Both the position numbers and the translations under genes were made by a program. Shown in pieces: positions 21,779 through 47,582 of a stretch of 64,000 nt of DNA (position 1 is its first letter; each line of letters starts with the position of its first letter). The notes under the pieces are model-generated. The model did no database searches, was not told where the DNA came from, and saw only the letters and a program-made list of their open reading frames with translations. The DNA comes from Candidatus Zhuqueibacterota bacterium (GTDB lineage: Bacteria > Zhuqueibacterota > Zhuqueibacteria > Thermofontimicrobiales > Thiofontviventaceae), in contig JAFGDW010000300.1 in assembly GCA_016931935.1 (NCBI GenBank), positions 55,274 to 119,273 of the forward strand, in the 5' to 3' direction.

Positions 21779-22018
21779 GGTTGCTCCTGTTTCCTGATCC
21801 GATTTGTTTGATAAGTTAAACTGAGAGCGATTTTTAATGGTTCCCATCAAAGTGAATTTCTTTTCGCGTGAAGATGTTTCTTTTATAAAACAAACGTTTG
21901 AAATAGTCGTGAAATTTTATAAGTCGAATGAAAAATCATGAACGAGCTGTCGTGTTACTCATTGTCTTTTGAACTTGCGTCCGTTGGCCATTGTCCGTTA
22001 TCCGTTATCCGTTCATCT

Positions 22019-35093: not shown

Positions 35094-35461
35094 TTATATT
35101 GCAATGATATTCCATTATGAATATTCCGGTAGAGAAAATTCATACCATATCCAGTTTCCCTATCCTCCCAACAAATCTCATATCCACCAATCGCCAAATA
35201 AGGCATTCCCAAATCGATAATAGTTTATAATTTTATCCAACATCTTCAGGTAATTCTTTCATCTATCTTCTGCCATACGGACGTTTCCTCCATTAATTAA
35301 AAAATCTTCATTTTGTTCAACAATTGTTATTTTTTCAATTCGAAAAACGATGAAGTATAAATGGAAGCATATCCGAATTACCAAATCAATGTCGGTTTCT
35401 GCAATTTTTTCTTGTGGGAAGCAGAACTGCTTATTTACTAATCAGAGGAGGCGCTACGATC

Positions 35462-38400
35462 ATGCAACAGTACAAAAAATTATTCATAATTACTCTTGTG
35501 TTATTGAGCACGATATTTTCAATGCAGATTGCGCTGGTTGCCCAGGGACAGCCACCGGAGTCGCCCAAAGGCCCGATGGGCATCCCCTTTATGCTTGCAT
35601 TTATGCCTGGCGACAGTGCTAAAATCCCGGTTGAATTTTTTGAATCCGTACCTGCCGATTCGCAGGTCAGCGGTTTTGCCTTTACGTTAGTAAAGAATTC
35701 CAGTGATCTTAAATTTCACGGAGTTGACACAGCAGCTACTGCGCTGAGCCATTGGACAGTTGATTACACCATGTCTGGTGACTCAATTCGAGTACAAGCA
35801 AACGCTCCGGGTGGAGTTTACTTTACGAAACCAGACGGCCCTCCAGCATTGCTTTGTGCTATCCGAGGCATGATCTATCAGGGCGCTGCCGTAGGTGACA
35901 GCATTGGCCTGCAGATTCGCCATGTGTCGATAGTAAAGAAGGGCCAGACGGTGGCGCTACCGGATTCAATGTTTGGCCCATCGATGATAAAATTACAGAC
36001 AGGCGATACTCCTCCACAGCCAGGAAATACAATCGCGTTTACATTTCTCGATACCCAATCGTGGCCTGATTCCAGCTTTAGCATTGATTTTGCCGTTACC
36101 GAGCCGGTTCCTGCGGATTCACAGGTTAGTCGCATTCGCGGAGTGATGGAAGCGATACCAAACGAAGTCATGTGGTCCAGCAGCGAAAGCATGTTGTCGC
36201 CCCAATTCAGTGGCTGGTCACTTATCGTTACACCCGAAAGCGGCCTCGTTGAGTTCGATCTCGAAGCGCCGAATGGAACATATCTCGTCCATGATGGGAA
36301 CGATCCATTTGTTATCTTCAGTCTTGGTGGGAATATATTGTCAACATCGATGCCCGGGACTAATATTGAAGTGCAAGCAGACCGATTATTTCTGACAATT
36401 AAAGGTACAGAATTGGTGACGGATCCGGATAAGGTGCATTCCGGTTTTATCAAGATCATGGGCGATGAACCGCCTCCACCTCCGCCGGGGAACGAATTGT
36501 CATTTTCGTTTGGCCATAGCTTTTCCAAACCGGACTCAGGCTTTGGTTTGGATTTCATGATAACGCAACCGATTCCCGCTGATTCCCAACTTATTCGAAT
36601 TCATGCGAAAGTTGTTGCCAATCCGACCGAGGTCATTTGGACATCCAACGGTCAAATTTTGGCGCCTGAATTATCAAATTGGGCATTAGACATCATCCCC
36701 GGTGATGAATTTGTCGAATTCGAATTAATGTCTATCGATGGTTCCCCGCTTGTGCATGATGGGCAAGATCCATTTATTGTGTTTAATCTTACGGGCGTCG
36801 TTAAGGGTTACGCCACTCCGGATCATGCGATTGAAGTAGTCGCAACTGAACTCGAGCTTGAAGTCAATAATAAAGTCGTAACTGCCGATCCACAAATAAT
36901 CATGCCCGGCAAAATTATGTTGGATGATGGCGAAAATCCGCCTCCACCACCCGATCACGGATACTTATTTTCGTTTAATGAAGCCATATCGGACCCCGGA
37001 TCTTATTTTAATTTAATGTTCGCGTTAACAAGCCCGGTGCCACCGGATTCGCAATTAAGCCGTATCCGCATGGTTGTGCAGAGCATGCCGCCAGCGTTAA
37101 ACTGGGCCGAAACAGGGCATTCACTTCAACCAATTATGAGTGATTGGACATTAACGGTGACACCGGGACCGGAAGCCACCGAATTTGATCTTGTCGCTCC
37201 GCCGGGCGTTTTCCTGGCAACTGATTCATCCATGTCTGGGTTGAATTTAGTTCTGTTTAGCGGTGAAGTCGCACCAGATGCGCCGGCTCAGGGGATGGTT
37301 GATGTTCAGGCCAAAGAACTGTTCCTGACACTCAATGGCGTCGAAAAGACGATCGATCCGATAACTGTTCAACCGGGAAAAGTTTTACTCGGCAATGGCG
37401 AAGAACCACCACCAGGGCAACAATCCCTGTTTGCATTTTTCGATACATTCTCCAAACCGGATTCCAACTTTGCAATGGAATTTGCCATTACACAACCAAT
37501 TCCCGCCGACTCACAGTTAAGCCGGATTTGTGCAGTCGTTCGGGCGATGCCACAGGAGCTGGATTGGTCGCCAACCGGGCACATGCTAGCACCAGGCATG
37601 GAAAGCTGGAGCTTGAATGTAACGGTAGGCAATGATTCGATGATGTTCGATATCCAGGCGCCAACCGGCCAATTCATCACACATGATGCGATGGTGCCGC
37701 TCGTGCTTGCAACATTCGTGGGGGGTGTTCGCCCGTCAGCATCGGTTGAACAGAATATTGAAGTCAAAGCGGAAAATCTAAAGCTGACCATCAAGGGTAT
37801 AGAACATGAGTTTGATCCCGGAATGATTCAACCGGGCAAAGTGCGGTTGAATAATAATCCCGATGGTCCGCCACCGGGAGGGGAATCACTGTTCATATTC
37901 TTCGATACAAACGCTGAACCCGGAACTGATTTTCTGCTTGATTTTGCCGTTGCCATGCCGGTTCCGGCAGATTCAGAAATTAGTCGCTTACAGATCGGCT
38001 TAAAAATTGAACCGAATTTATTGGTGTGGAACGCCGATGAATCAAAAGTCGCCGAGGAGCTTGCGGATTGGACGCTTACATCCACTGCGGCAGGAGATTC
38101 AATGGAGTTCGATTTGCAGTCGACAAGTGGCAGCTTTCTGGTGCATGATGGATTCGATCCATATCGGATTGCTACGTTAGCCGGTTCTGTTCAGGCAAGC
38201 GCACCACAAAATGCCATTATTCAATTAACAGCGACAAAAATTTATGTAACTATGCACGGTGTTGTAACATCAATACCACCGACGTCCATCCCCCCGGTAA
38301 AAATTATGCTCGGTGGTCATGTTGGTCCACCTCCGCCGCCTCCACCGCCTCCGCCTCCAACACCAATTTCATCGGGCGATGGCCGCATGAATCTTGGATT

Positions 38401-40858
38401 ATACGGCGGTTCGGTAGCAGATATGGCCTACGATGAAGTACACGACATCGTTCTGGCAGCATTGAGCGCGCCGCAATCCGTATTTATTTCCGCTGACAGT
38501 GGTTTAACCTGGACGGCTGCATTCCCATATGATTCGTTGGAATTCTGGACCGGCCAGGAACGTCGCGGCTTTGGTGGCCGGGCTGACCAGGTACAAGCTT
38601 CCCTCGGATATTGTTATGCCAAAACCAGTCAGGAAGCTGGTACACTTACCGGTTCCCAGGTATCGTTTGATGGTATTAACTGGAAAACCCTGCTTGATCC
38701 ATACATGGTTGGCAATCTGTTAGGTACAACTTTTCCGGGACAAGCCAATGGTCAATATGCCATCGGCTCACTGTCAACGTATGGCCCGGTAGCGCTTGTA
38801 AGCGCGATGAATTTCGTATTTCGCACTACTGACGCCGGACAAACGTGGGATATTAGTGTCGTGCCAAATTCAACGGCATTTAATACAGATAAAACCATCA
38901 CGACAGTCGAATTATGTCGGGATGATCCGACGGGGCGCAGTTTTTATGTGGTGTTAACCGGTAATAACGGCTCATCCAATCCGGAATTCTATCGCACCCA
39001 TGATGGGGTTGATTTCAGTCGAATCTTTATCGTCTCCGGCGCTGATACAGTTCACAACGTTATGGGCATCACAACACATCCGTATGCCAGCGATACTTTA
39101 TGGGCAGCAGCTGTTGATGAAGGCAAGCCGACACTCGGCGGATTGTGGCGATCATACGACGCCGGAGCCAATTGGACAATGATTTACCCGGGCGGGAATC
39201 CCCATAATGCACCAATGGCAACAATTTATGAAGACATCAGCTATCCGGGACCAAATAATCTCCGAATTTTCATTGTCGGCGAAAACAAATATTCTGACGA
39301 TTTAGGCACCACCTGGGTAGAATTCAGTCCGCAAACTGATCCATATGTAGATCGTGGATCAAACGCCAGAGCGGGTATCGGTCATGTGACCAACACCGAT
39401 ATTTATTTTGCCATGGGTGACGGTGCGCCATCGCGCTCAACGACGGGTATTGATGGCTACTATCTGTTTGTGCCAACCGGACTTGAAGGCATAAATATCT
39501 GGGACATTGCCCAGGTACCTAACCAGGTTGATAAAGTCTATCTGGCAACAAGTGTCGGTATTGCCTATACATCCGAGTTTACGAATACCGCATTAACTTC
39601 CACGCAAAAATGGGCATCACCCTATGGCAATTATCCGATCAATCCGGCGCAAGGCGGTAATACCGGATTTACTGCGATTGAAATTGATCCGAACAATACG
39701 TTGCATGTTGTGGCAGCCAATGGCAATGCAATTTTTGTAACGATGAACGGCGGCTTTACCAATAACGATTGGGATGCCACCCAATATAGCGAAGTTAGCG
39801 GATTGGACGAATCCGAGTTTAAAGGACGTGGCGGCCAGGTCAGCCAGATTACATTTATCACCAGCGACACGTTGATCGCCTCTGTATTTTGTGAACATTC
39901 GCTTTATGGCGTGCTCATGCAAAGCACCGATGGTGGCTACACCTGGTCAACAATGCCACAAGCCGGTGAACATGCGTTCCGTACTGTTATTGCCGCGTGG
40001 AATAGTGCACAGGATTCGGTTGTGCTCTATGCCGGTGGAGGCCATGTTACAGAAGATGTGTTTACTCATGCCACCCTGATCGATTCGGGTGCAGTCTATC
40101 GTTCCGAAGATCGGGGCGCGACATGGTCACAAGTCTCCACGGCTCCACATGGTGTATTCAATCCCGCGCCGTATCCGTTGCCGATTAACAATATGATGGC
40201 AAAACCGGGCAGCCTGGATACGCTGTACATGGCGTGCGGTGAAAATTTGAGCAATGCCATTGTCCGAACGTTTGACGGTGGCGTCACGCTCGAATCGTTG
40301 AGCATGGCCGCAGTCGGCATGTTTGAGGGCGCGTTTGAAGCGGTGGCGATCAACAAGAATCATCCCGATAGCGTGTACTTTGCCGTTCGTCGTGATATTT
40401 TGGTGTACGATGCTGCTTCAAACACCACAGCCACAATGTTCCGCGGCTACCCGGGTGAATTGACCCACGCATTGTTATTTGATGAGTTGACAATGGGATC
40501 ATCATCCGGTTTCTACCAATTGACAGCGCCAACGAATACCGATCCCAGTGCGCTTGATGGTAAGAAAGCAACAATTCCGACACGAGTGGAACTGGCGCAG
40601 AACTATCCGAATCCGTTTAATCCATCTACCAGCATTATTTTCTCACTACCGCAGGACGGTAACGTGAAGCTGGAAGTATTCAACCTGATCGGCCAGCGAG
40701 TCGCCACGCTGCTTTCCGAACCACGGAAAGCCGGTGAACATCGCATCAGCTACCAGGCGGATGATCTGGCCAGCGGTATCTATTTCTATCGGCTACAGGT
40801 CACCTTTGCCAACGGACAGAAGCGAATTCTGTCGAAGAAGTTGATGGTGATCAAGTAG
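35462..40858 (+). CDS. Giant secreted protein: N-terminal Ig/cohesin-like domain, 5 tandem ~155-aa novel repeats with poly-Pro linkers, BNR/Asp-box-like beta-propeller region, and a T9SS type-A C-terminal sorting domain
   Basis: Start set at MQQYKK (signal peptide; AGGAGG RBS at ~35444). Repeats span aa 206-975 of the track ORF with a conserved F.F......PDS.F...FA.T.P.PADSQ.SRI core, ...LVHDG.DPF... and IEV.A..L.L. Followed by PPPPPPPPPPPTP. Then six or more SxDxGxTW Asp-box motifs (SADSGLTWT, TTDAGQTWD, SYDAGANWT, SDDLGTTWV, STDGGYTWS, SEDRGATWS). C-terminus QNYPNPFNPSTSIIFSLPQDGNVKLEVFNLIGQRVATL...SGIYFYRL matches the Por-secretion CTD signature. Confidence 0.8.
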   Translation: MQQYKKLFIITLVLLSTIFSMQIALVAQGQPPESPKGPMGIPFMLAFMPGDSAKIPVEFFESVPADSQVSGFAFTLVKNSSDLKFHGVDTAATALSHWTVDYTMSGDSIRVQANAPGGVYFTKPDGPPALLCAIRGMIYQGAAVGDSIGLQIRHVSIVKKGQTVALPDSMFGPSMIKLQTGDTPPQPGNTIAFTFLDTQSWPDSSFSIDFAVTEPVPADSQVSRIRGVMEAIPNEVMWSSSESMLSPQFSGWSLIVTPESGLVEFDLEAPNGTYLVHDGNDPFVIFSLGGNILSTSMPGTNIEVQADRLFLTIKGTELVTDPDKVHSGFIKIMGDEPPPPPPGNELSFSFGHSFSKPDSGFGLDFMITQPIPADSQLIRIHAKVVANPTEVIWTSNGQILAPELSNWALDIIPGDEFVEFELMSIDGSPLVHDGQDPFIVFNLTGVVKGYATPDHAIEVVATELELEVNNKVVTADPQIIMPGKIMLDDGENPPPPPDHGYLFSFNEAISDPGSYFNLMFALTSPVPPDSQLSRIRMVVQSMPPALNWAETGHSLQPIMSDWTLTVTPGPEATEFDLVAPPGVFLATDSSMSGLNLVLFSGEVAPDAPAQGMVDVQAKELFLTLNGVEKTIDPITVQPGKVLLGNGEEPPPGQQSLFAFFDTFSKPDSNFAMEFAITQPIPADSQLSRICAVVRAMPQELDWSPTGHMLAPGMESWSLNVTVGNDSMMFDIQAPTGQFITHDAMVPLVLATFVGGVRPSASVEQNIEVKAENLKLTIKGIEHEFDPGMIQPGKVRLNNNPDGPPPGGESLFIFFDTNAEPGTDFLLDFAVAMPVPADSEISRLQIGLKIEPNLLVWNADESKVAEELADWTLTSTAAGDSMEFDLQSTSGSFLVHDGFDPYRIATLAGSVQASAPQNAIIQLTATKIYVTMHGVVTSIPPTSIPPVKIMLGGHVGPPPPPPPPPPPTPISSGDGRMNLGLYGGSVADMAYDEVHDIVLAALSAPQSVFISADSGLTWTAAFPYDSLEFWTGQERRGFGGRADQVQASLGYCYAKTSQEAGTLTGSQVSFDGINWKTLLDPYMVGNLLGTTFPGQANGQYAIGSLSTYGPVALVSAMNFVFRTTDAGQTWDISVVPNSTAFNTDKTITTVELCRDDPTGRSFYVVLTGNNGSSNPEFYRTHDGVDFSRIFIVSGADTVHNVMGITTHPYASDTLWAAAVDEGKPTLGGLWRSYDAGANWTMIYPGGNPHNAPMATIYEDISYPGPNNLRIFIVGENKYSDDLGTTWVEFSPQTDPYVDRGSNARAGIGHVTNTDIYFAMGDGAPSRSTTGIDGYYLFVPTGLEGINIWDIAQVPNQVDKVYLATSVGIAYTSEFTNTALTSTQKWASPYGNYPINPAQGGNTGFTAIEIDPNNTLHVVAANGNAIFVTMNGGFTNNDWDATQYSEVSGLDESEFKGRGGQVSQITFITSDTLIASVFCEHSLYGVLMQSTDGGYTWSTMPQAGEHAFRTVIAAWNSAQDSVVLYAGGGHVTEDVFTHATLIDSGAVYRSEDRGATWSQVSTAPHGVFNPAPYPLPINNMMAKPGSLDTLYMACGENLSNAIVRTFDGGVTLESLSMAAVGMFEGAFEAVAINKNHPDSVYFAVRRDILVYDAASNTTATMFRGYPGELTHALLFDELTMGSSSGFYQLTAPTNTDPSALDGKKATIPTRVELAQNYPNPFNPSTSIIFSLPQDGNVKLEVFNLIGQRVATLLSEPRKAGEHRISYQADDLASGIYFYRLQVTFANGQKRILSKKLMVIK
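35546..38340 (+). repeat. Tandem in-frame coding repeats (~465-480 bp unit, ~6 copies counting the diverged first domain) inside the giant CDS
   Basis: Periodic protein motif (PADSQ[VL]SRI) recurs every ~155 aa. Units are separated by Pro-rich linkers (PPPPPPGN, PPPPPDHG, EPPPGQQ, GPPPGGE, PPPPPPPPPPPTP). Diverged at ~30-40% aa identity, so ancient rather than recent duplications. Confidence 0.6.
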
Positions 40859-40868
40859 TATAGTTTAA

Positions 40869-40901
40869 TTGGCAAGCGGGAGATTTTCTTCCGCTTGCCA
40901 A
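40869..40901 (+). terminator. Perfect 11-bp hairpin immediately after the giant CDS stop
   Basis: ttggcaagcgg(40869-79)/ccgcttgccaa(40891-901). No clear T-run, so possibly rho-dependent or an RNA-stability element. Confidence 0.35.
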
Positions 40902-41020
40902 TACCCCAACTATCTCAAAGAACTCCAACTTCAATAGTTAAATAATTTCACCTTGATTTTCTCCTAACTTTTTCGTAATATTACCGAATCCTTCCCTACA
41001 CTTAATCTAAAAAAAACTTC

Positions 41021-41057
41021 ATTGAATTTTGAGTTTTGAATGTTGAATTTTGAATGG
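41021..41057. repeat. Left inverted repeat of the four-helix-bundle gene cassette (ttgaatg / gttttgaat-rich)
   Basis: attgaattttgagttttgaatgttgaattttgaatgg. Its imperfect reverse complement lies at 41511-41543. Confidence 0.5.
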
Positions 41058-41130
41058 AAAAATTATAGCACTTTGTTCCAGCCATTATCGAGTAAACATT
41101 TGTTACTAAATTTCAAAGGGAAAACATTGA

Positions 41131-41484
41131 ATGAAAGACAATATTATTCGGGATAGAAGTTTTGAATTTGCATTGGCGATTATTAATCTCTACCAGTCAC
41201 TGATCTAAGATAAGGAATTTGTGTCGTCCAAACAACTACTTCGAAGTGGGACAAGTATAGGGGCAAACATTGAAGAATCAGGTGCCGCCCAAAGCAAGCG
41301 GGATTTTCTATCAAAAATGTCAATTGCCTCAAAAGAAGCGCGAGAAGCAAAGTATTGGCTACGATTATTGAACGAAAACAAATTAATCCAAATTAATGTC
41401 GATGAATATCTCGGTGAAATTGATCAGATTATAAATATCTTGACCAGAATTGTCAAAACAACATCACAAAATTTAAAAAATTAG
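41131..41484 (+). pseudogene. Four-helix-bundle protein (TIGR02436; '23S rRNA intervening-sequence protein' family) interrupted by an in-frame TAA at 41206..41208
   Basis: Reading from the ATG at 41131 gives MKDNIIRDRSFEFALAIINLYQSLI*DKEFVSSKQLLRSGTSIGANIEESGAAQSKRDFLSKMSIASKEAREAKYWLRLL... The family-defining LLRSGTSIGANI..E..G..SK.DF and KEARE..YWL motifs are intact on both sides of the stop. The ORF track only reports the downstream GTG-initiated fragment 41221..41484. Confidence 0.6.
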
Positions 41485-41510
41485 CACACCATGAGGCGTT
41501 ATTTTTTTCT

Positions 41511-41543
41511 AATTCAAAACTCAACATTCAACATTCAAAATTT
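41511..41543. repeat. Right inverted repeat of the four-helix-bundle gene cassette
   Basis: aattcaaaactcaacattcaacattcaaaattt. Its reverse complement aaattttgaatgttgaatgttgagttttgaatt matches the left repeat's motif content. Confidence 0.5.
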
Positions 41544-41551
41544 AGTACTAA

Positions 41552-42775
41552 ATGTCTAAGCAACTTCGCACTCTCTACGACAACGAAAATGCAGTCTCAT
41601 TCCTCATTTGCATGCTCATTTTCGGTATATCGGGCGGACTAAACTCCGGATCGCTGAATAATTACCTGCACGAGGTATTGGCTATTTCCCAGGTGGAACG
41701 TGGTATAGTGGAATTCCCACGGGAACTACCAGGCTTACTGCTAATGTTCATCATCGCCATTCTGTCACGATTTTCCGAGCTGAAAGTCATGAATTTCGCG
41801 TTGCTGATTTCCATGACCGGCATGATCGGTCTGGGATTTGTGGGTGATACACGAACGATGGCCATTGTCTCCATCATTCTTTTCAGCACCGGTGAGCACA
41901 TGTTGATGCCGATCAAACAATCGGTTGCCATGCACATGGCACGAAATGGCAAGGAAGGGTTGGCCATGGGCGGTGTCAGCAGCCTGGAAAATATCGGACA
42001 ATTGATTGGGCAATACACGATTCCCGTACTATTTTTGATTGTTGGTTTTATCATCCCAGGCGTCAGTGTTTATGGAAAATTCCGCCATGTATTTCTGCTG
42101 GCTGCCATCGTGCTGTTTGGCGCGTTTGTCATTGCGTCACGAATCCGTGAAACCCATGGACATATCGAACGAAAGAAAATTTATTTTCGGAAGAAATTCA
42201 CCAAATACTATATTCTGGAAATGTTCTTTGGCGCACGTAAACAGGTATTTCTCACATTCGCACCGTATGTGCTGGTTCTAAATTATGGGGCAAAAACCGA
42301 ATACGTAGCATTTCTCTACGGCTTGTGGTCGTTTATCAACATTTTTCTTGGTCCGTTAATGGGACGACTGATCGACAGGCTTGGCTATAAACTTATCATT
42401 GTAATCGATACGATTGTGCTTGTCGGATTGTGCTTCCTGTACGGATTTAGTCATCGTTTATTCCCACATCCGATTGCATTTGCTATCATATCCGTTGTGT
42501 TTGTGCTCGATGCTATTTTATTCATGGTCGGCATGGCGCGGGCAGTGTATGTGAAATCAATTTCCAATTCGAAAGCAGAAATCACTACCGTACTTTCAAC
42601 CGGCGTTTCCATCAATCATGTGGTTAGCATTGCGATTGCTATTGCTGGTGGTATTATCTGGCAAAAAATCGGAATCGAAGGCTTATTTTCGTTGGCGGCA
42701 GTATTTGGAATTGGGTCATTTTTATTTGCATTGACATTGCCTTCACCAAGCACAATTTCAGCAATACGGTCATGA
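41552..42775 (+). CDS. MFS transporter (12 TMS)
   Basis: 407 aa. 12 hydrophobic segments and MFS-like loop motifs. Confidence 0.75.
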   Translation: MSKQLRTLYDNENAVSFLICMLIFGISGGLNSGSLNNYLHEVLAISQVERGIVEFPRELPGLLLMFIIAILSRFSELKVMNFALLISMTGMIGLGFVGDTRTMAIVSIILFSTGEHMLMPIKQSVAMHMARNGKEGLAMGGVSSLENIGQLIGQYTIPVLFLIVGFIIPGVSVYGKFRHVFLLAAIVLFGAFVIASRIRETHGHIERKKIYFRKKFTKYYILEMFFGARKQVFLTFAPYVLVLNYGAKTEYVAFLYGLWSFINIFLGPLMGRLIDRLGYKLIIVIDTIVLVGLCFLYGFSHRLFPHPIAFAIISVVFVLDAILFMVGMARAVYVKSISNSKAEITTVLSTGVSINHVVSIAIAIAGGIIWQKIGIEGLFSLAAVFGIGSFLFALTLPSPSTISAIRS

Positions 42776-42977
42776 AATGACACTAATTAGTGTTTGAACG
42801 AAAACGCCCAAACATGTCATTCCGAGTCGCTTTTTGACGAGGAATCTATGACCTCACAACGCTTATAGAACCAAAGTAATAGTGGTCGCAAATTTTTCGT
42901 CGCTTCACTCATTAAAATGACAAAAAATGAGTTTTTGTTCAGACTATAATTAACAATCATAATTTATGAGGGAGAAT

Positions 42978-43805: not shown

Positions 43806-46148
43806 ATGAAACAACGATTTATATCCGGCATTTGTCTATGCCTCTGGACGATTTTATTCCTGAATTTTTCAGGGATATTTGCCGAACCAAACACATCGAA
43901 GCATATGAGTGAAACGCGCGCGCTGTGGGTTACTCGTTGGGATTTTACCTCCCCGGATGATATAAAAACGATTATGCGCAATGCGGCGGCGTACCACTTC
44001 AATACTGTTTTCTTTCAGGTGCGAGGTGCGGGGACAGTTTATTTCAAATCAAGGTATGAACCGCCGGCATTTAACGGTTCGCAATTCTGGGATCCGCTGG
44101 ATGTCGCAATCAAAGCGGCACACCAGCACAATATGCAATTGCATGCGTGGGTCAACGTCTATCCTGGCTGGGCAGGTACCTCACCACCGGAACATCCGGG
44201 ACAGCTCTGGAACGAGCATCCCGATTGGTTCATCACCGATGCCGAGCGTAATCCAATGACGCTCAATCGGCATTACGTCTGGCTGTCACCAACTCATCCG
44301 GATGCACGACTGCACCTGACGCAGCTTTTTTGCGAACTTATCAGTCGCTATGATATCGACGGTCTCCATTTCGATTACATCCGTTTTCCCGGACCAGGCT
44401 ATTCCTACGATTCATTGTCCGTTGCTCGTTTCAAAAATCAAACAATAGATTATGCCGGAAATATTCACGAACTATGGGATCAGTATCGACGCGATGGCAT
44501 CACGCAACTGGTAAAGGCCATTTATGGATACACGCGCGAACAAAAACGGAATGTGATTCTTTCCAGTGCAGTGATGCGAAATCGTGATATTGGGCGGCGC
44601 CTGTATATGCAGGATGGCCATCGCTGGCTGGCGGAAGGCGCGACGGATTTTCTCGCGCCCATGCTATACACCACAAATGCATTGCTGTTTGAAAACATGC
44701 TGAATGATCATTTGCGGAACGCGCACGAACGTTATATTTTCCCCGGCATCAACATCACCGACGGCCCAAAGGTTGAAGCACAAATCATGCTCTGCCGGTC
44801 GCATGGTATTCCCGGGCACTGTCTGTTTTCATATGAGGAGTTGTTTCCCGGTCACAGACCGAATGGCACTGCAAATTATTTGCTAAAATCGGTGTACGTC
44901 GAGCCTGCAGACCCCGCCCAATTGGAATGGAAAAAAGATCATACGGAACGAATGGTGATTCATACGGTCGAAACGCTTCCTGATGAGGTTCTCGGTCAGC
45001 AGCCGTTCAATGTTCGCTGCACCGTTTCCAATCTGCAGGAAAAATCGTCGATTTATGCCGCCTGGAGTTTGCAGCCGGATCATTTCCCCATCAAATTCCG
45101 GCGGCCGATGACACGGCTAAATGGCAATTCCAATCAATTTATTACATCCTATCCAATTCCTGCCTTTCCCAAAGGAAGTATCATTTACATGAAAGTAATA
45201 ACGGCGGACAGCTCAAGCGTTAGTGATGTTATCCCGGTGATTGTGCAAACCAGTCAGAAAACATATCAGCAGGAAAAACTATTCGGCCCATTATTATCCA
45301 ATGCGCAGTATGCGGTGACCGATACTTTGGGGCAAACATGGGTGTGTGAACAGGGGAAGCGACAAATCCGCGTGTTTGCTTATATGGGGAATGAACTGCC
45401 ATTTTCACCGATTTCCATCGGGCGCAGTCCCTCGAGTAATTTTGAGTCGCTGCCGAAACCGTGCGGTTTGGCGATCAATCAGTACGGAATTGTGCATGTC
45501 TCAGCCAATTCCGGACGTAACGCGATTTATCGCTACAAATGCCAAACCGGCGCAGCAGCGTCTGCGATTCAGCTCACTTTCTGGCCGGGTGATCTCGATA
45601 TTGATGGCCAGGGCAATATTTTTGTGATTGAATCGGATGGCAATGGCTGGCATATTCTGAATAGCAATGGAAAGGAATTGCGACACAGTCCGATGTTCGG
45701 AGCCCATATGAGCCAGGGAATTGCTGTTAATAAGGAAGGCACACGCGTGTACATTGCCTGTCGTGCTGAGGGAACGGTTCACTGCTGGCAGGGCAGCATT
45801 ATTGGCGATGAAGCAATTTACGAGCAGATGGATGACTTGCCGGTCACAGATGTCGGTCTCGGCGCTGTTGATGTCGGCCCCGACGGACGGGTTTACGTCT
45901 CCCAATGTGACATTGGCACAATTTCGATTTTTAATAAAAATCATGAATTTATTGAATATTTACGTGGCGATGATCCCCCAATTACTGCACCCCGTGGTGT
46001 GGCAATCGCTCCCAACGGACAATATCTGACCGTTGCCGAATGGGGGATTGACAGTCCGCTCTTTATGCAGCGGTGGGAAATTCGGCAGGAAAAGGAATTT
46101 TTAAAAACTGTAAACGGTAACCGGAAAATGGAAAACGTCATCCGGTGA
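43806..46148 (+). CDS. Glycoside hydrolase-like family 10 (GHL10, YngK-like) domain protein with C-terminal NHL-repeat beta-propeller
   Basis: Signal peptide MKQRFISGICLCLWTILFLNFSGIFA. N-terminal ~400 aa resemble the GHL10 TIM-barrel (RALWVTRWDF...NTVFFQVRGAG...LHFDYIRFP). The C-terminal ~350 aa have 5-6 NHL-like blades (PCGLAINQYGIVHV, GNIFVIESDG, GIAVNKEGTRVYIA, GRVYVSQCDIGTISIF, PRGVAIAPNGQYLTVAE). Confidence 0.6.
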   Translation: MKQRFISGICLCLWTILFLNFSGIFAEPNTSKHMSETRALWVTRWDFTSPDDIKTIMRNAAAYHFNTVFFQVRGAGTVYFKSRYEPPAFNGSQFWDPLDVAIKAAHQHNMQLHAWVNVYPGWAGTSPPEHPGQLWNEHPDWFITDAERNPMTLNRHYVWLSPTHPDARLHLTQLFCELISRYDIDGLHFDYIRFPGPGYSYDSLSVARFKNQTIDYAGNIHELWDQYRRDGITQLVKAIYGYTREQKRNVILSSAVMRNRDIGRRLYMQDGHRWLAEGATDFLAPMLYTTNALLFENMLNDHLRNAHERYIFPGINITDGPKVEAQIMLCRSHGIPGHCLFSYEELFPGHRPNGTANYLLKSVYVEPADPAQLEWKKDHTERMVIHTVETLPDEVLGQQPFNVRCTVSNLQEKSSIYAAWSLQPDHFPIKFRRPMTRLNGNSNQFITSYPIPAFPKGSIIYMKVITADSSSVSDVIPVIVQTSQKTYQQEKLFGPLLSNAQYAVTDTLGQTWVCEQGKRQIRVFAYMGNELPFSPISIGRSPSSNFESLPKPCGLAINQYGIVHVSANSGRNAIYRYKCQTGAAASAIQLTFWPGDLDIDGQGNIFVIESDGNGWHILNSNGKELRHSPMFGAHMSQGIAVNKEGTRVYIACRAEGTVHCWQGSIIGDEAIYEQMDDLPVTDVGLGAVDVGPDGRVYVSQCDIGTISIFNKNHEFIEYLRGDDPPITAPRGVAIAPNGQYLTVAEWGIDSPLFMQRWEIRQEKEFLKTVNGNRKMENVIR

Positions 46149-46190
46149 CCGATATTTCTGTTTTCCTTGCTCCGTTCTCCGTTTTCCATT

Positions 46191-47582
46191 CTATCCACTT
46201 TGCTTGCTCCGCTCTCCATTTTCCGTTTCTGCCTGGTTTTCAATGCGCTGTAGCGTAAACAGGGCACGAATATCACGGAACGCAAACAGTGCACTCAACG
46301 TATCTCTAATTCGCCAATCATCAACCGGCTCCAGCCGCCGAGTTAGGAAAATAATCGGGAGACACACAACAAAAATTATGGCGAAATAGAGCCGGTAGAT
46401 ATTTAAATCAGCAAATCCCACATAACGCAATCCCTGCAACAAACCTCCGCCCATAAAAGTCCCAATGAATCCCGCGAGCACACCGGAAATCATGTACATG
46501 AAAATATTCACACCAACCCGATCACCATCAGTAGTAATAGTCAAAAAATAATGTGTCAATGATGTCTCATTTCCTGATCGGCAGGCGCCGAAGATCAGAA
46601 AAATCACCGCCGGATATACAACAATTAGCTGCGCTGGCGCCACAATCCAAAGCGCACAAATCGCAACAAAACCGGCATTGAAAATCACCAGCATTGGCCG
46701 TGGCCCAAAACGGTCGAGAATGATTCTGTTAATATACGATACAGTGATGCTGCCAACGACCTGCACCAGCGTAAAAAACAACGCATTCCGATCGGAAATT
46801 AAATAGCCGCGCTTCAATGCCACGATAGAAAATGGACCGATCAGTACAATCGCCGCACCAGATGCCGTCCAGGCAAACAGCAGCTTACGGATTCGCGGTG
46901 TATGAATCGTGCGAAAGAAGGCCTCCCGGATGGATTTGTGGGCGGAAAGTTTAGGACCATTCGTTTCCGGCACCCGACTGATAATTGAAGCAGCCAACAG
47001 TCCGAAAATGATACCGAACGTAATAATGCCCTGGAACACCGGAATCGATTCGTTATAATTCAAAACGAAAATCAGGCTGCCGACTGTTATCAGCAGCATA
47101 ATATGGAAATACATCCAGTTACTGGCTAAATATTGTCCCCTTGATTTTTGATCGGTAATCTCACCCAAAATCGGTGTATTTGCGGTAATTCCCATACTGC
47201 GAAAACTAAAAAATCCGAAGATGCTAAATACAAGCAGGCCCAATCCCGCATGCGTTCCCCATGTGCGAATGACCAGTGGCACCAATAACAACAACGACGC
47301 ACACATTTTGCGCAGAACCCACACCAAACCATACGTTCGTGCAGCGCCAATACGTTTGACAAACGCCTTTCCGACAAACATAAACGGCATTGTCAGGTAA
47401 AAGAACGATGACAGCAAACCGATAACAAATTCATTCGCACCGTTTTTCAACGCGTAAAGAATGAGAATACTATCGGCCAGGCAGGCAAACGAGACCGCGT
47501 TCATGCGCGTGAACCATAAGTAACGGCTGCGGCCAATGTGCTGCTGTTGGAGTGTTAATTTATCGTGAATCTGGTCAGACAT
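46191..47582 (-). CDS. MFS transporter
   Basis: 463 aa with ~12 TMs. Confidence 0.75.
   Translation of the reverse strand: MSDQIHDKLTLQQQHIGRSRYLWFTRMNAVSFACLADSILILYALKNGANEFVIGLLSSFFYLTMPFMFVGKAFVKRIGAARTYGLVWVLRKMCASLLLLVPLVIRTWGTHAGLGLLVFSIFGFFSFRSMGITANTPILGEITDQKSRGQYLASNWMYFHIMLLITVGSLIFVLNYNESIPVFQGIITFGIIFGLLAASIISRVPETNGPKLSAHKSIREAFFRTIHTPRIRKLLFAWTASGAAIVLIGPFSIVALKRGYLISDRNALFFTLVQVVGSITVSYINRIILDRFGPRPMLVIFNAGFVAICALWIVAPAQLIVVYPAVIFLIFGACRSGNETSLTHYFLTITTDGDRVGVNIFMYMISGVLAGFIGTFMGGGLLQGLRYVGFADLNIYRLYFAIIFVVCLPIIFLTRRLEPVDDWRIRDTLSALFAFRDIRALFTLQRIENQAETENGERSKQSG

Follow-up and report, generated by a model that had tools for sequence, protein, structure and literature searches.

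A 64,000-nucleotide (nt) stretch of contig JAFGDW010000300.1 (assembly GCA_016931935.1, positions 55,274 to 119,273 of the forward strand), hereafter referred to as the window, carries a small cassette between the gene for a secreted-type protein and that for an MFS transporter. Within this cassette, a gene of the four-helix-bundle (4HB) family TIGR02436/PF05635, interrupted by one in-frame nonsense codon, is enclosed by two complementary arms built from tandem heptamers. The arrangement recalls the intervening sequences of 23S rRNA, and the object is probably an intervening-sequence-type cassette located outside rRNA, in which the open reading frame (ORF) is dead and the stem is intact. The left arm (41020-41075, + strand) has as its core a period-7 TTGAATN array at 41022-41057, with pairing that extends to 41075, and is separated from the start codon by a spacer of 55 nt (41076-41130, + strand), which is longer than in most homologous loci. 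The 4HB gene occupies 41131-41484 on the + strand and is followed by the right arm (41492-41547, + strand), the core of which is a period-7 NATTCAA array at 41509-41543 that is complementary to the left arm. Tandem Repeats Finder delimits the two arrays, each with a period of 7, at 41022-41055 (4.9 copies of TTGAATT) and 41511-41542 (4.6 copies of AATTCAA), and a repeat search places the arms of the inverted repeat at 41025-41067 and 41500-41542 (43 nt, 81% complementary), with a 20-nt core at 95%.

As RNA, the duplex between 41020-41075 and 41492-41547 comprises 49-50 base pairs (bp) and has a predicted energy of -46.7 kcal/mol, as compared with -14.2 +/- 3.3 kcal/mol for 500 shuffles (z about -10). 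When all 546 nt of the cassette are folded, this arm stem closes the minimum-free-energy structure (z = -3.3), and none of 100 shuffles folds as well. An earlier note on this DNA, made from its letters alone, had described imperfect inverted repeats of about 35 bp around the 4HB gene and had suspected a long stem. The inverted arrays and the closing stem are indeed present, but the length had been understated, since the stem reaches about 50 bp. The corresponding antisense duplex is weaker (-36.4 kcal/mol); the sense duplex is more stable by about 10 kcal/mol because it contains eight G·U pairs.

The 4HB gene and its in-frame stop

The 5' part of the gene (codons 1-25, 41131-41205, + strand) covers the helix 1 region, where the TIGR02436/PF05635 match starts at residue 2-7. 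Codon 26 is TAA (41206-41208, + strand), and the rest of the gene (41209-41484, + strand), which comprises codons 27-117 and the terminal TAG at 41482-41484, keeps all of the invariant family residues, the translation amounting to a 117-residue product with a single internal stop. When codon 26 is read as X, this product scores 98.4 bits against TIGR02436 (cut-off 24; profile positions 2-108 of 109) and 84.4 bits against PF05635 (cut-off 33.8; profile positions 1-105 of 106), and nine intact homologues score 100.7-112.5 bits against TIGR02436. In an alignment with 19 full-length homologues, the window copy retains 35 of the 35 invariant columns, and the residue at the position of codon 26 is E, Q, K, S, A, G or R in the homologues, TAA being one base change away from GAA, CAA or AAA. 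Because all invariant columns are retained and codon 26 is one substitution from a sense codon, the TAA is, on this alignment, the sole visible lesion of the gene. Judged from its sequence, the gene is a member of the TIGR02436/PF05635 family by descent and a pseudogene as sequenced. The earlier note had stated that codon 26 is a stop, that the family motifs are intact on both sides of it and that the family was originally described within 23S rRNA intervening sequences, and had considered the locus consistent with a recent inactivation. The translation, the invariant columns and the end-to-end matches to both profiles agree with the first three statements, and the occurrence of one nonsense codon with no further lesion, at a near-normal profile score, agrees with the last.

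Full-length relatives of 115-122 residues number in the thousands in a search of 5.8 billion proteins, the best identity being 71%, and a metagenome scan for relatives found none above 68% identity. The closest solved homologue is PDB 2RLD, which matches over its full length with a profile E of 3.6e-36. The family comprises 14,764 cluster representatives at 50% identity, many of which are partial calls: some begin at profile positions 24-27, and others stop at positions 76-86 and continue into unrelated tails (examples of partial representatives are P0287, P0307, P0352, P0378, P0302, P0304, P0314 and P0319). Since so many representatives are partial, interrupted copies may be common in public data.

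Conceivably, the TAA stems from an error of sequencing or assembly or from a minority variant, and the organism possesses an intact, functional 4HB gene in an ordinary cassette. Such an explanation would fit a lesion that is the only one in a gene scoring close to its intact homologues, in a contig assembled from a metagenome. Moreover, the only independent assembly found, Logan contig L081 (SRR13394437), is identical to the window over 41242-42843 and begins 34 nt past the TAA, and exact look-ups of the ORF of 87 residues downstream of the stop and of the neighbouring isochorismatase-family gene gave no match. Nevertheless, base-substitution errors are rare in short-read consensus sequence, which counts against an artefact, and so does the recurrence of stops in unrelated assemblies. 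Among the homologous loci, which were sampled in favour of high-scoring copies so that frameshifted ones are under-counted, a single TAA or TAG interrupts otherwise full-length copies in L104 (codon 14), L130 (codon 22) and L139 (codon 83). Another locus carries two cassettes in one pyrimidine-degradation operon (L112:288-653 and L112:2995-3348), one of them between PreT-like and PreA-like genes; each holds one stop (TAG at codon 30; TAA at codon 78), and their arm units differ from each other. Two in-frame stops occur in a copy on a complete record of Monoglobus pectinilyticus (L164). As nonsense alleles recur in this manner, the TAA of the window is likelier to be real, and an artefact is considered quite unlikely.

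A second question is whether the interrupted gene is still expressed, either by read-through or as a helix 1 peptide of 25 residues together with a re-initiated product. A GTG at 41221, 12 nt past the TAA, opens an ORF of 87 residues in the same frame (41221-41484), and this ORF, as well as the full conservation of sequence on both sides of the stop, would be compatible with expression. On the other side, no recoding signal is evident, the genes that neighbour stop-bearing copies use the standard code, and the stops of the other copies are scattered (codons 14, 22, 30, 78 and 83), as would be expected of random nonsense mutation. With positions so scattered and the standard code in the neighbours, these stops resemble simple inactivating mutations more than recoding, and programmed recoding at a fixed site is rejected on account of the scatter. 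Continued expression of the window copy is therefore regarded as highly improbable.

A promoter within the cassette was considered and rejected. No sigma-70-like or TAnnTTTG motif was found on the + strand of the cassette, including the spacer at 41076-41130. The lone perfect match to the sigma-70 consensus (12/12; TTGACA, a 17-nt spacer and TATAAT) is antisense and lies inside the 4HB gene, at 41428-41456 on the minus strand. It is built from the codons of the conserved IINILTxIVK motif, and a 12/12 match occurs in only two of 161 homologues, most of which score 8-10.

The DNA comes from a bacterium of candidate division KSB1, as the product of the downstream MFS gene shares 100% identity with NCBI 'MFS transporter [candidate division KSB1 bacterium]' on a 159-kb contig. 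The gene for this protein (41552-42775, + strand; PF07690, 66 bits) has its start codon 5 nt past the right arm, and a perfect 14-nt palindrome, ATTTAGTACTAAAT, at 41540-41553, directly after the right arm, overlaps its ATG. The upstream gene (35414-40858, + strand; stop codon at 40856-40858) encodes a secreted-type protein of 1814 residues with repeated modules and a run of 12 prolines, the C-terminal segment of which (NYPNPFNPSTSIIF...) we take to resemble a type IX secretion sorting domain. The strong hairpin that had been reported upstream of the cassette is real; it follows the stop codon of the upstream gene at 40868-40902 (+ strand) and has 16-nt arms, which are 94% complementary, and a 3-nt loop. 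No T-run follows it on either strand, and, being located 118 nt ahead of the left arm, it belongs to the context and lies outside the cassette.

Heptamer arms in homologous loci

The surroundings of the gene were compared among 80 loci with relatives from one-genome-per-species contigs and 80 loci from metagenome contigs. The genomes represent Bacteroidota, Chloroflexota, Acidobacteriota, Cyanobacteriota, Planctomycetota, Lentisphaerota, Spirochaetota, Ignavibacteriota, Balneolales, Desulfobacterota and two lineages of the candidate phyla radiation. Pairing was scored between the 120 nt upstream of each copy and the reverse complement of the 120 nt downstream, with the 99th percentile of shuffled flanks as the threshold. 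Of the 78 genome loci, 73% had significant flanking inverted repeats, and so did 61% of the 61 metagenome loci (139 loci from more than 10 phyla in all), as against 6.5% among 214 control ORFs taken from the genome loci (L001-L080). The flanks are also periodic: autocorrelation values of 0.45-0.46 for lag 7 and 0.41-0.44 for lag 14 stand out from a background of about 0.28, with peaks at lags 7, 14 and 21, and control flanks are flat. At least 17 of 21 matches at lag 7 are present in a flank of 59% of copies, compared with 10% of control flanks, and the corresponding figure at periods 5, 6, 8 and 9 is 0%. G exceeds C in the upstream flank of 134 of the 148 copies.

The commonest arm units are TTTTGAA, TTTTAAA, ATTATAA, ATGTTGA and GTTTTGA. 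The unit varies by lineage (TTTTGAA, ATTATAG/ATTTTAA, AGTTAGG, AATTAGG, GTGGAAA, TGGTCAC and GATTAGT), and the two arms remain complementary to each other. The same design is found around homologues with only 44-50% identity, with TTCAAAA/TTTTGAA on a Nostoc plasmid, AATTAGG in Monoglobus (Bacillota), GTGGAAA/CTCTCCG in Treponema, 13 copies of TGGTCAC in Euhalothece, and 10 copies of GATTAGT in Bernardetia. A unit that changes while the complementarity of the arms is preserved amounts, at the sequence level, to co-variation of whole arms. On these comparisons, the inverted period-7 bracket is a trait of the 4HB family and not of the window copy only.

The cassettes are closely fitted to the genes around them. 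Both neighbours are on the strand of the 4HB gene in 104 loci and both are on the opposite strand in six. The 4HB gene is separated by a median of 52 nt from its upstream neighbour and of 41 nt from its downstream neighbour, distances that barely exceed the arms, and the spacer from the left arm to the ATG is mostly no longer than about 30 nt. In Weeksellaceae, the cassette is found between the genes for a thiolase and an acyl-CoA dehydrogenase at one syntenic site (ten loci) across genera, one genus having a different unit in both arms. In Chitinophagales-type genomes, it separates the genes for PreT-like and PreA-like subunits in an operon for pyrimidine degradation. The Monoglobus copy mentioned above (L164:601-939, on a 518-kb record of a plasmid collection) is located in a type I restriction-modification system, with hsdS on one side and hsdR on the other; it has arms of the AATTAGG type and is unannotated in the gene table of the record.

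Mobility, gain and loss of cassettes

The 4HB gene of the window has a GC content of 34.7%, as compared with 45.8% in its flanks. An offset of this kind is typical of the family: in 145 of 146 loci, the 4HB gene has a lower GC content than its flanks (mean difference 9.5 points), and its composition tracks the GC content of the host (r = 0.8). Because the offset is family-wide and tied to the host, low GC is uninformative on recent arrival and is ruled out as a mark of it.

Neither a second copy of the gene nor one of the arms exists in the 64-kb window, where the further copies of the inverted repeats that the earlier note had associated with mobility are thus missing. No direct repeat was found at both outer borders of the arms, and the direct-repeat families that were found are internal or chance-like. 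The cassette encodes no transposase, and no recombinase lies in or beside it. No relative close enough to show an empty version of the site was found: MFS homologues are 66-74% identical and have unrelated upstream genes with no synteny, and the best metagenome match to the 4HB gene is 68%. The designation of the window locus as a mobile-like insertion is hence unproven.

By contrast with the window locus, one orthologous site elsewhere is found in several states. In the pyrimidine operon of Chitinophagales-type genomes, the junction that precedes the CN-hydrolase gene is bare in L037 and L024 (14 and 27 nt, respectively). It holds a heptamer hairpin made of the arms only in L034 and L032 (89 and 80 nt, respectively), carries a solo array in L039 and L022, and contains a full cassette in L016 and L112; the arm units differ between the filled and the arms-only versions. 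Since bare, arms-only, solo-array and filled versions of a single site occur, individual junctions evidently gain or lose cassettes, and arms can stand without an ORF. In addition, the TTGAATN unit of the window arms is the unit of the closest homologues in unrelated phyla and differs from the AACGGAN arrays of the host itself, which suggests that the 4HB gene and its arms travel together. These other period-7 arrays of the host, with the unit AACGGAN/TCCGTTA, are located at 46104-46192 and 21994-22013. Between two convergent genes, the array pair at 46104-46192 folds into a hairpin that is weak (-24.5 kcal/mol, z -2.6) and overlaps the end of the + strand gene.

A rearranged form is present at L001:2948-3548, where a TTTTGAA array, a 4HB ORF, a second TTTTGAA array in the same direction, the first 33 codons of a second copy and an inverted array follow one another. 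This layout looks like the product of unequal recombination or of nested duplication.

These results bear directly on the possibility that the cassette is a recent insertion of a miniature inverted-repeat transposable element (MITE) or another small transposon, the arrays of which would serve as terminal repeats for a recombinase encoded elsewhere. Inverted ends, a patchy occurrence across more than 10 phyla at 60-71% protein identity, an arm unit (TTGAATN/TTTTGAA) that matches close homologues in unrelated phyla and not the AACGGAN of the host, and an operon junction that is bare, arms-only or filled depending on the genome would all be accounted for by such an insertion. The absence of a second copy within 64 kb, of a target-site duplication and of a recombinase in or next to the cassette argues against it, as do the family-wide GC offset that scales with host GC and the stable inheritance at one site across Weeksellaceae genera. 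Plasmid and phage records, furthermore, seldom carry the family (31 of 72,556 and 2 of 50,697, respectively), and the sense bias of 104 loci to six would be unexpected of a transposon that inserts at random. Transposition within Nostoc flagelliforme was rejected as a further indication of mobility, because the near-identical copies there include at least 200 nt of flank on each side and are segmental duplications. A recent transposon-like insertion is accordingly judged unlikely.

The cassette as an intervening sequence, and related systems

The interpretation preferred here, in which the cassette is of the intervening-sequence type, resides outside rRNA and combines an intact stem with a dead ORF, fits four features taken together: a sense ORF that appears to lack a promoter of its own, arms that are nearly flush with the neighbouring genes, complementarity between the arms, and a protein family shared with the rRNA elements. 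In a feasible model, the cassette would be transcribed within the transcript of the host operon, or else its transcription would start at a weak promoter within the AT-rich 118 nt that precede the left arm; the window copy would perhaps be transcribed with the MFS gene instead of with the upstream gene. The two arms would then pair in the RNA into a duplex that would bring the host sequences on its two sides close to each other. This duplex may be a substrate of RNase III, as it is in 23S rRNA intervening sequences, and cleavage would release the 4HB mRNA, a step that would limit the harm done to the host operon. RNase III cleavage of a stem of the window type is something that we infer from the analogy with these elements. 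In the window copy, the full-length protein would no longer be made and the stem would persist, as in the Coxiella intervening sequence.

Several observations weigh against this interpretation. Excision by RNase III has been shown for rRNA elements only. The window copy is itself atypical in its setting, as its distance from the upstream gene is 272 nt and includes a separate hairpin, and as 55 nt lie between the left arm and the ATG. Among the homologous loci, 27-39% have no significant inverted repeat, and at L078:2900-3520, in a Syntrophaceae assembly, the GTTTTGG/GTTTTGA arrays are direct and not inverted, with more arrays nearby. Finally, if pairing were maintained in the sense RNA, mismatches that keep a G·U pair there might be expected to predominate; in 94 loci, however, G·U-keeping transition mismatches number 77 in the sense and 72 in the antisense RNA. 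A cruder comparison of whole-flank duplexes favoured the sense strand in 54 loci versus 23 (p = 0.009). Given the neutral G·U count, the stem might matter at the DNA level or in either transcript.

Because of this neutral count, a role of the arms in DNA stays a serious rival. Here, heptamer arrays born by slippage would act as patches of homology, the 4HB ORFs would be gained and lost by recombination between arms-only and filled versions, and the RNA stem would be a by-product. The over-representation of heptamer repeats in bacterial genomes has been credited to slippage (PMC4692102). The arms-only hairpins of L034 and L032, at a site where L112 and L016 have full cassettes, would be expected from such recombination, and the succession of arrays, ORF, fragment and inverted array in L001 would fit an unequal exchange. 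Nonetheless, this explanation accounts neither for the sense bias nor for the flush fit of the cassettes to the stop and start codons of their neighbours, and it is at odds with the differing arm units in the filled and arms-only versions of one site, as well as with the 10 kcal/mol by which the eight G·U pairs of the window stabilize the sense duplex over the antisense one. A purely DNA-level role for the arms seems rather unlikely on balance, and the intervening-sequence interpretation continues to be preferred.

The window copy itself is then an ordinary dead member of a very large family in the wrapping typical of that family. It is tempting to speculate more broadly that 4HB genes within inverted 7-nt arrays constitute widespread and apparently undescribed 'intervening sequences of operons', that is, sense ORFs between co-transcribed genes in at least a dozen phyla, with arms that co-evolve and that persist as arms-only remnants after loss of the ORF. 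The protein or the processing of the stem would be tied to the arrays, and such elements would explain part of the intergenic heptamer excess in Xanthomonas and Nostoc. This generalization is offered tentatively, and we hold it to be doubtful in its full form. The comparisons above nevertheless show the stem-and-heptamer architecture, hitherto described for one rRNA intervening sequence, to be the usual setting of 4HB genes in the protein-coding operons of many phyla. If a full census bears this out, it would provide a handle on the purpose of 4HB proteins and of rRNA intervening sequences, a candidate being RNA processing or the toleration of insertions in transcription units, and would suggest an origin for some of the intergenic heptamer repeats. 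In practice, it would supply an annotation rule, in which two inverted period-7 arrays about 350-450 nt apart denote a 4HB cassette or its remnant.

Several known systems resemble the cassette in part. MITEs and repetitive extragenic palindromic (REP)-type palindromes are likewise small and intergenic, with terminal inverted repeats and the potential to form an RNA stem; the cassette differs from both in that it contains a conserved protein gene and has tandem 7-mer arms that vary by lineage, and from MITEs also in that it shows no target-site duplication and no multi-copy identity within 64 kb. Models from PADLOC and PHROG gave no match to the cassette. Intergenic heptamer arrays have been described as convergent pairs of GGGAATC in Xanthomonas, as GGGGA(C/T)T in Nostoc, as heptanucleotide repeats in cyanobacteria and as TAACTGA in Beggiatoaceae (PMC4692102; PMC4679880). 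They share with the cassette arms the period of 7, the intergenic location and, often, the convergent pairing, the 13 copies of TGGTCAC in the arms of the Euhalothece cassette being a case in point. In contrast to these published arrays, those of the window type specifically bracket a 4HB gene, and term searches of the same two papers (PMC4692102; PMC4679880) returned no mention of S23p, intervening-sequence or four-helix-bundle genes. The wider pattern of stem-enclosed 4HB inserts with heptamer arms in operons looks under-described, and its novelty is provisional, as no general link between 4HB/S23p genes and flanking heptamer inverted repeats was found in full-text literature, with subscription papers outside the search.

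With respect to the protein, PDB 2RLD, an 'uncharacterized protein' from Bacteroides-type genomes with five identical chains, is a close sequence relative in the same length class and is unlike the window copy in that the latter bears a nonsense codon. Avd, an accessory protein of diversity-generating retroelements, has been placed under PF05635 in a review (PMC10053308) and hence belongs to the same Pfam family and fold class. The setting of Avd is different, as the immediate neighbours of the window gene encode a secreted-type protein and an MFS transporter and include no reverse transcriptase, and no pair of template and variable repeats was seen in the neighbouring genes, to which this inspection was confined. 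A member of the 4HB family is transcribed and differentially expressed in Flavobacterium psychrophilum (PMC5787105).

The closest parallel is provided by the 23S rRNA intervening sequences, those with an S23p/PF05635 ORF being known from Leptospira, Coxiella burnetii, Brucella and Xanthomonas according to the work cited in PMC4990558. The defining location of these elements in rRNA (helix 25 or 45) does not apply to the window cassette, which lies between two protein-coding genes; an Rfam search found no rRNA and no other family in 40500-42000 of the window or in 20 sampled homologous loci. In the Coxiella element, tandem GACAGAT heptamers are located 5' of the S23p ORF, the termini form a stem of 28 bp, RNase III cleaves at the first of these heptamers, and the S23p ORF decays while the RNA element stays (PMC4990558). 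The stem of the window cassette, at about 50 bp, is longer than this. Period-7 arrays are present in both of its arms, a feature in common with the Coxiella element, the heptamers of which lie between its 5' end and the ORF. In other respects, the cassette and the rRNA elements have the same plan: both enclose a sense-oriented ORF of the same protein family within terminal inverted repeats that form a stem, and in both the ORF tends to decay and the element to persist.

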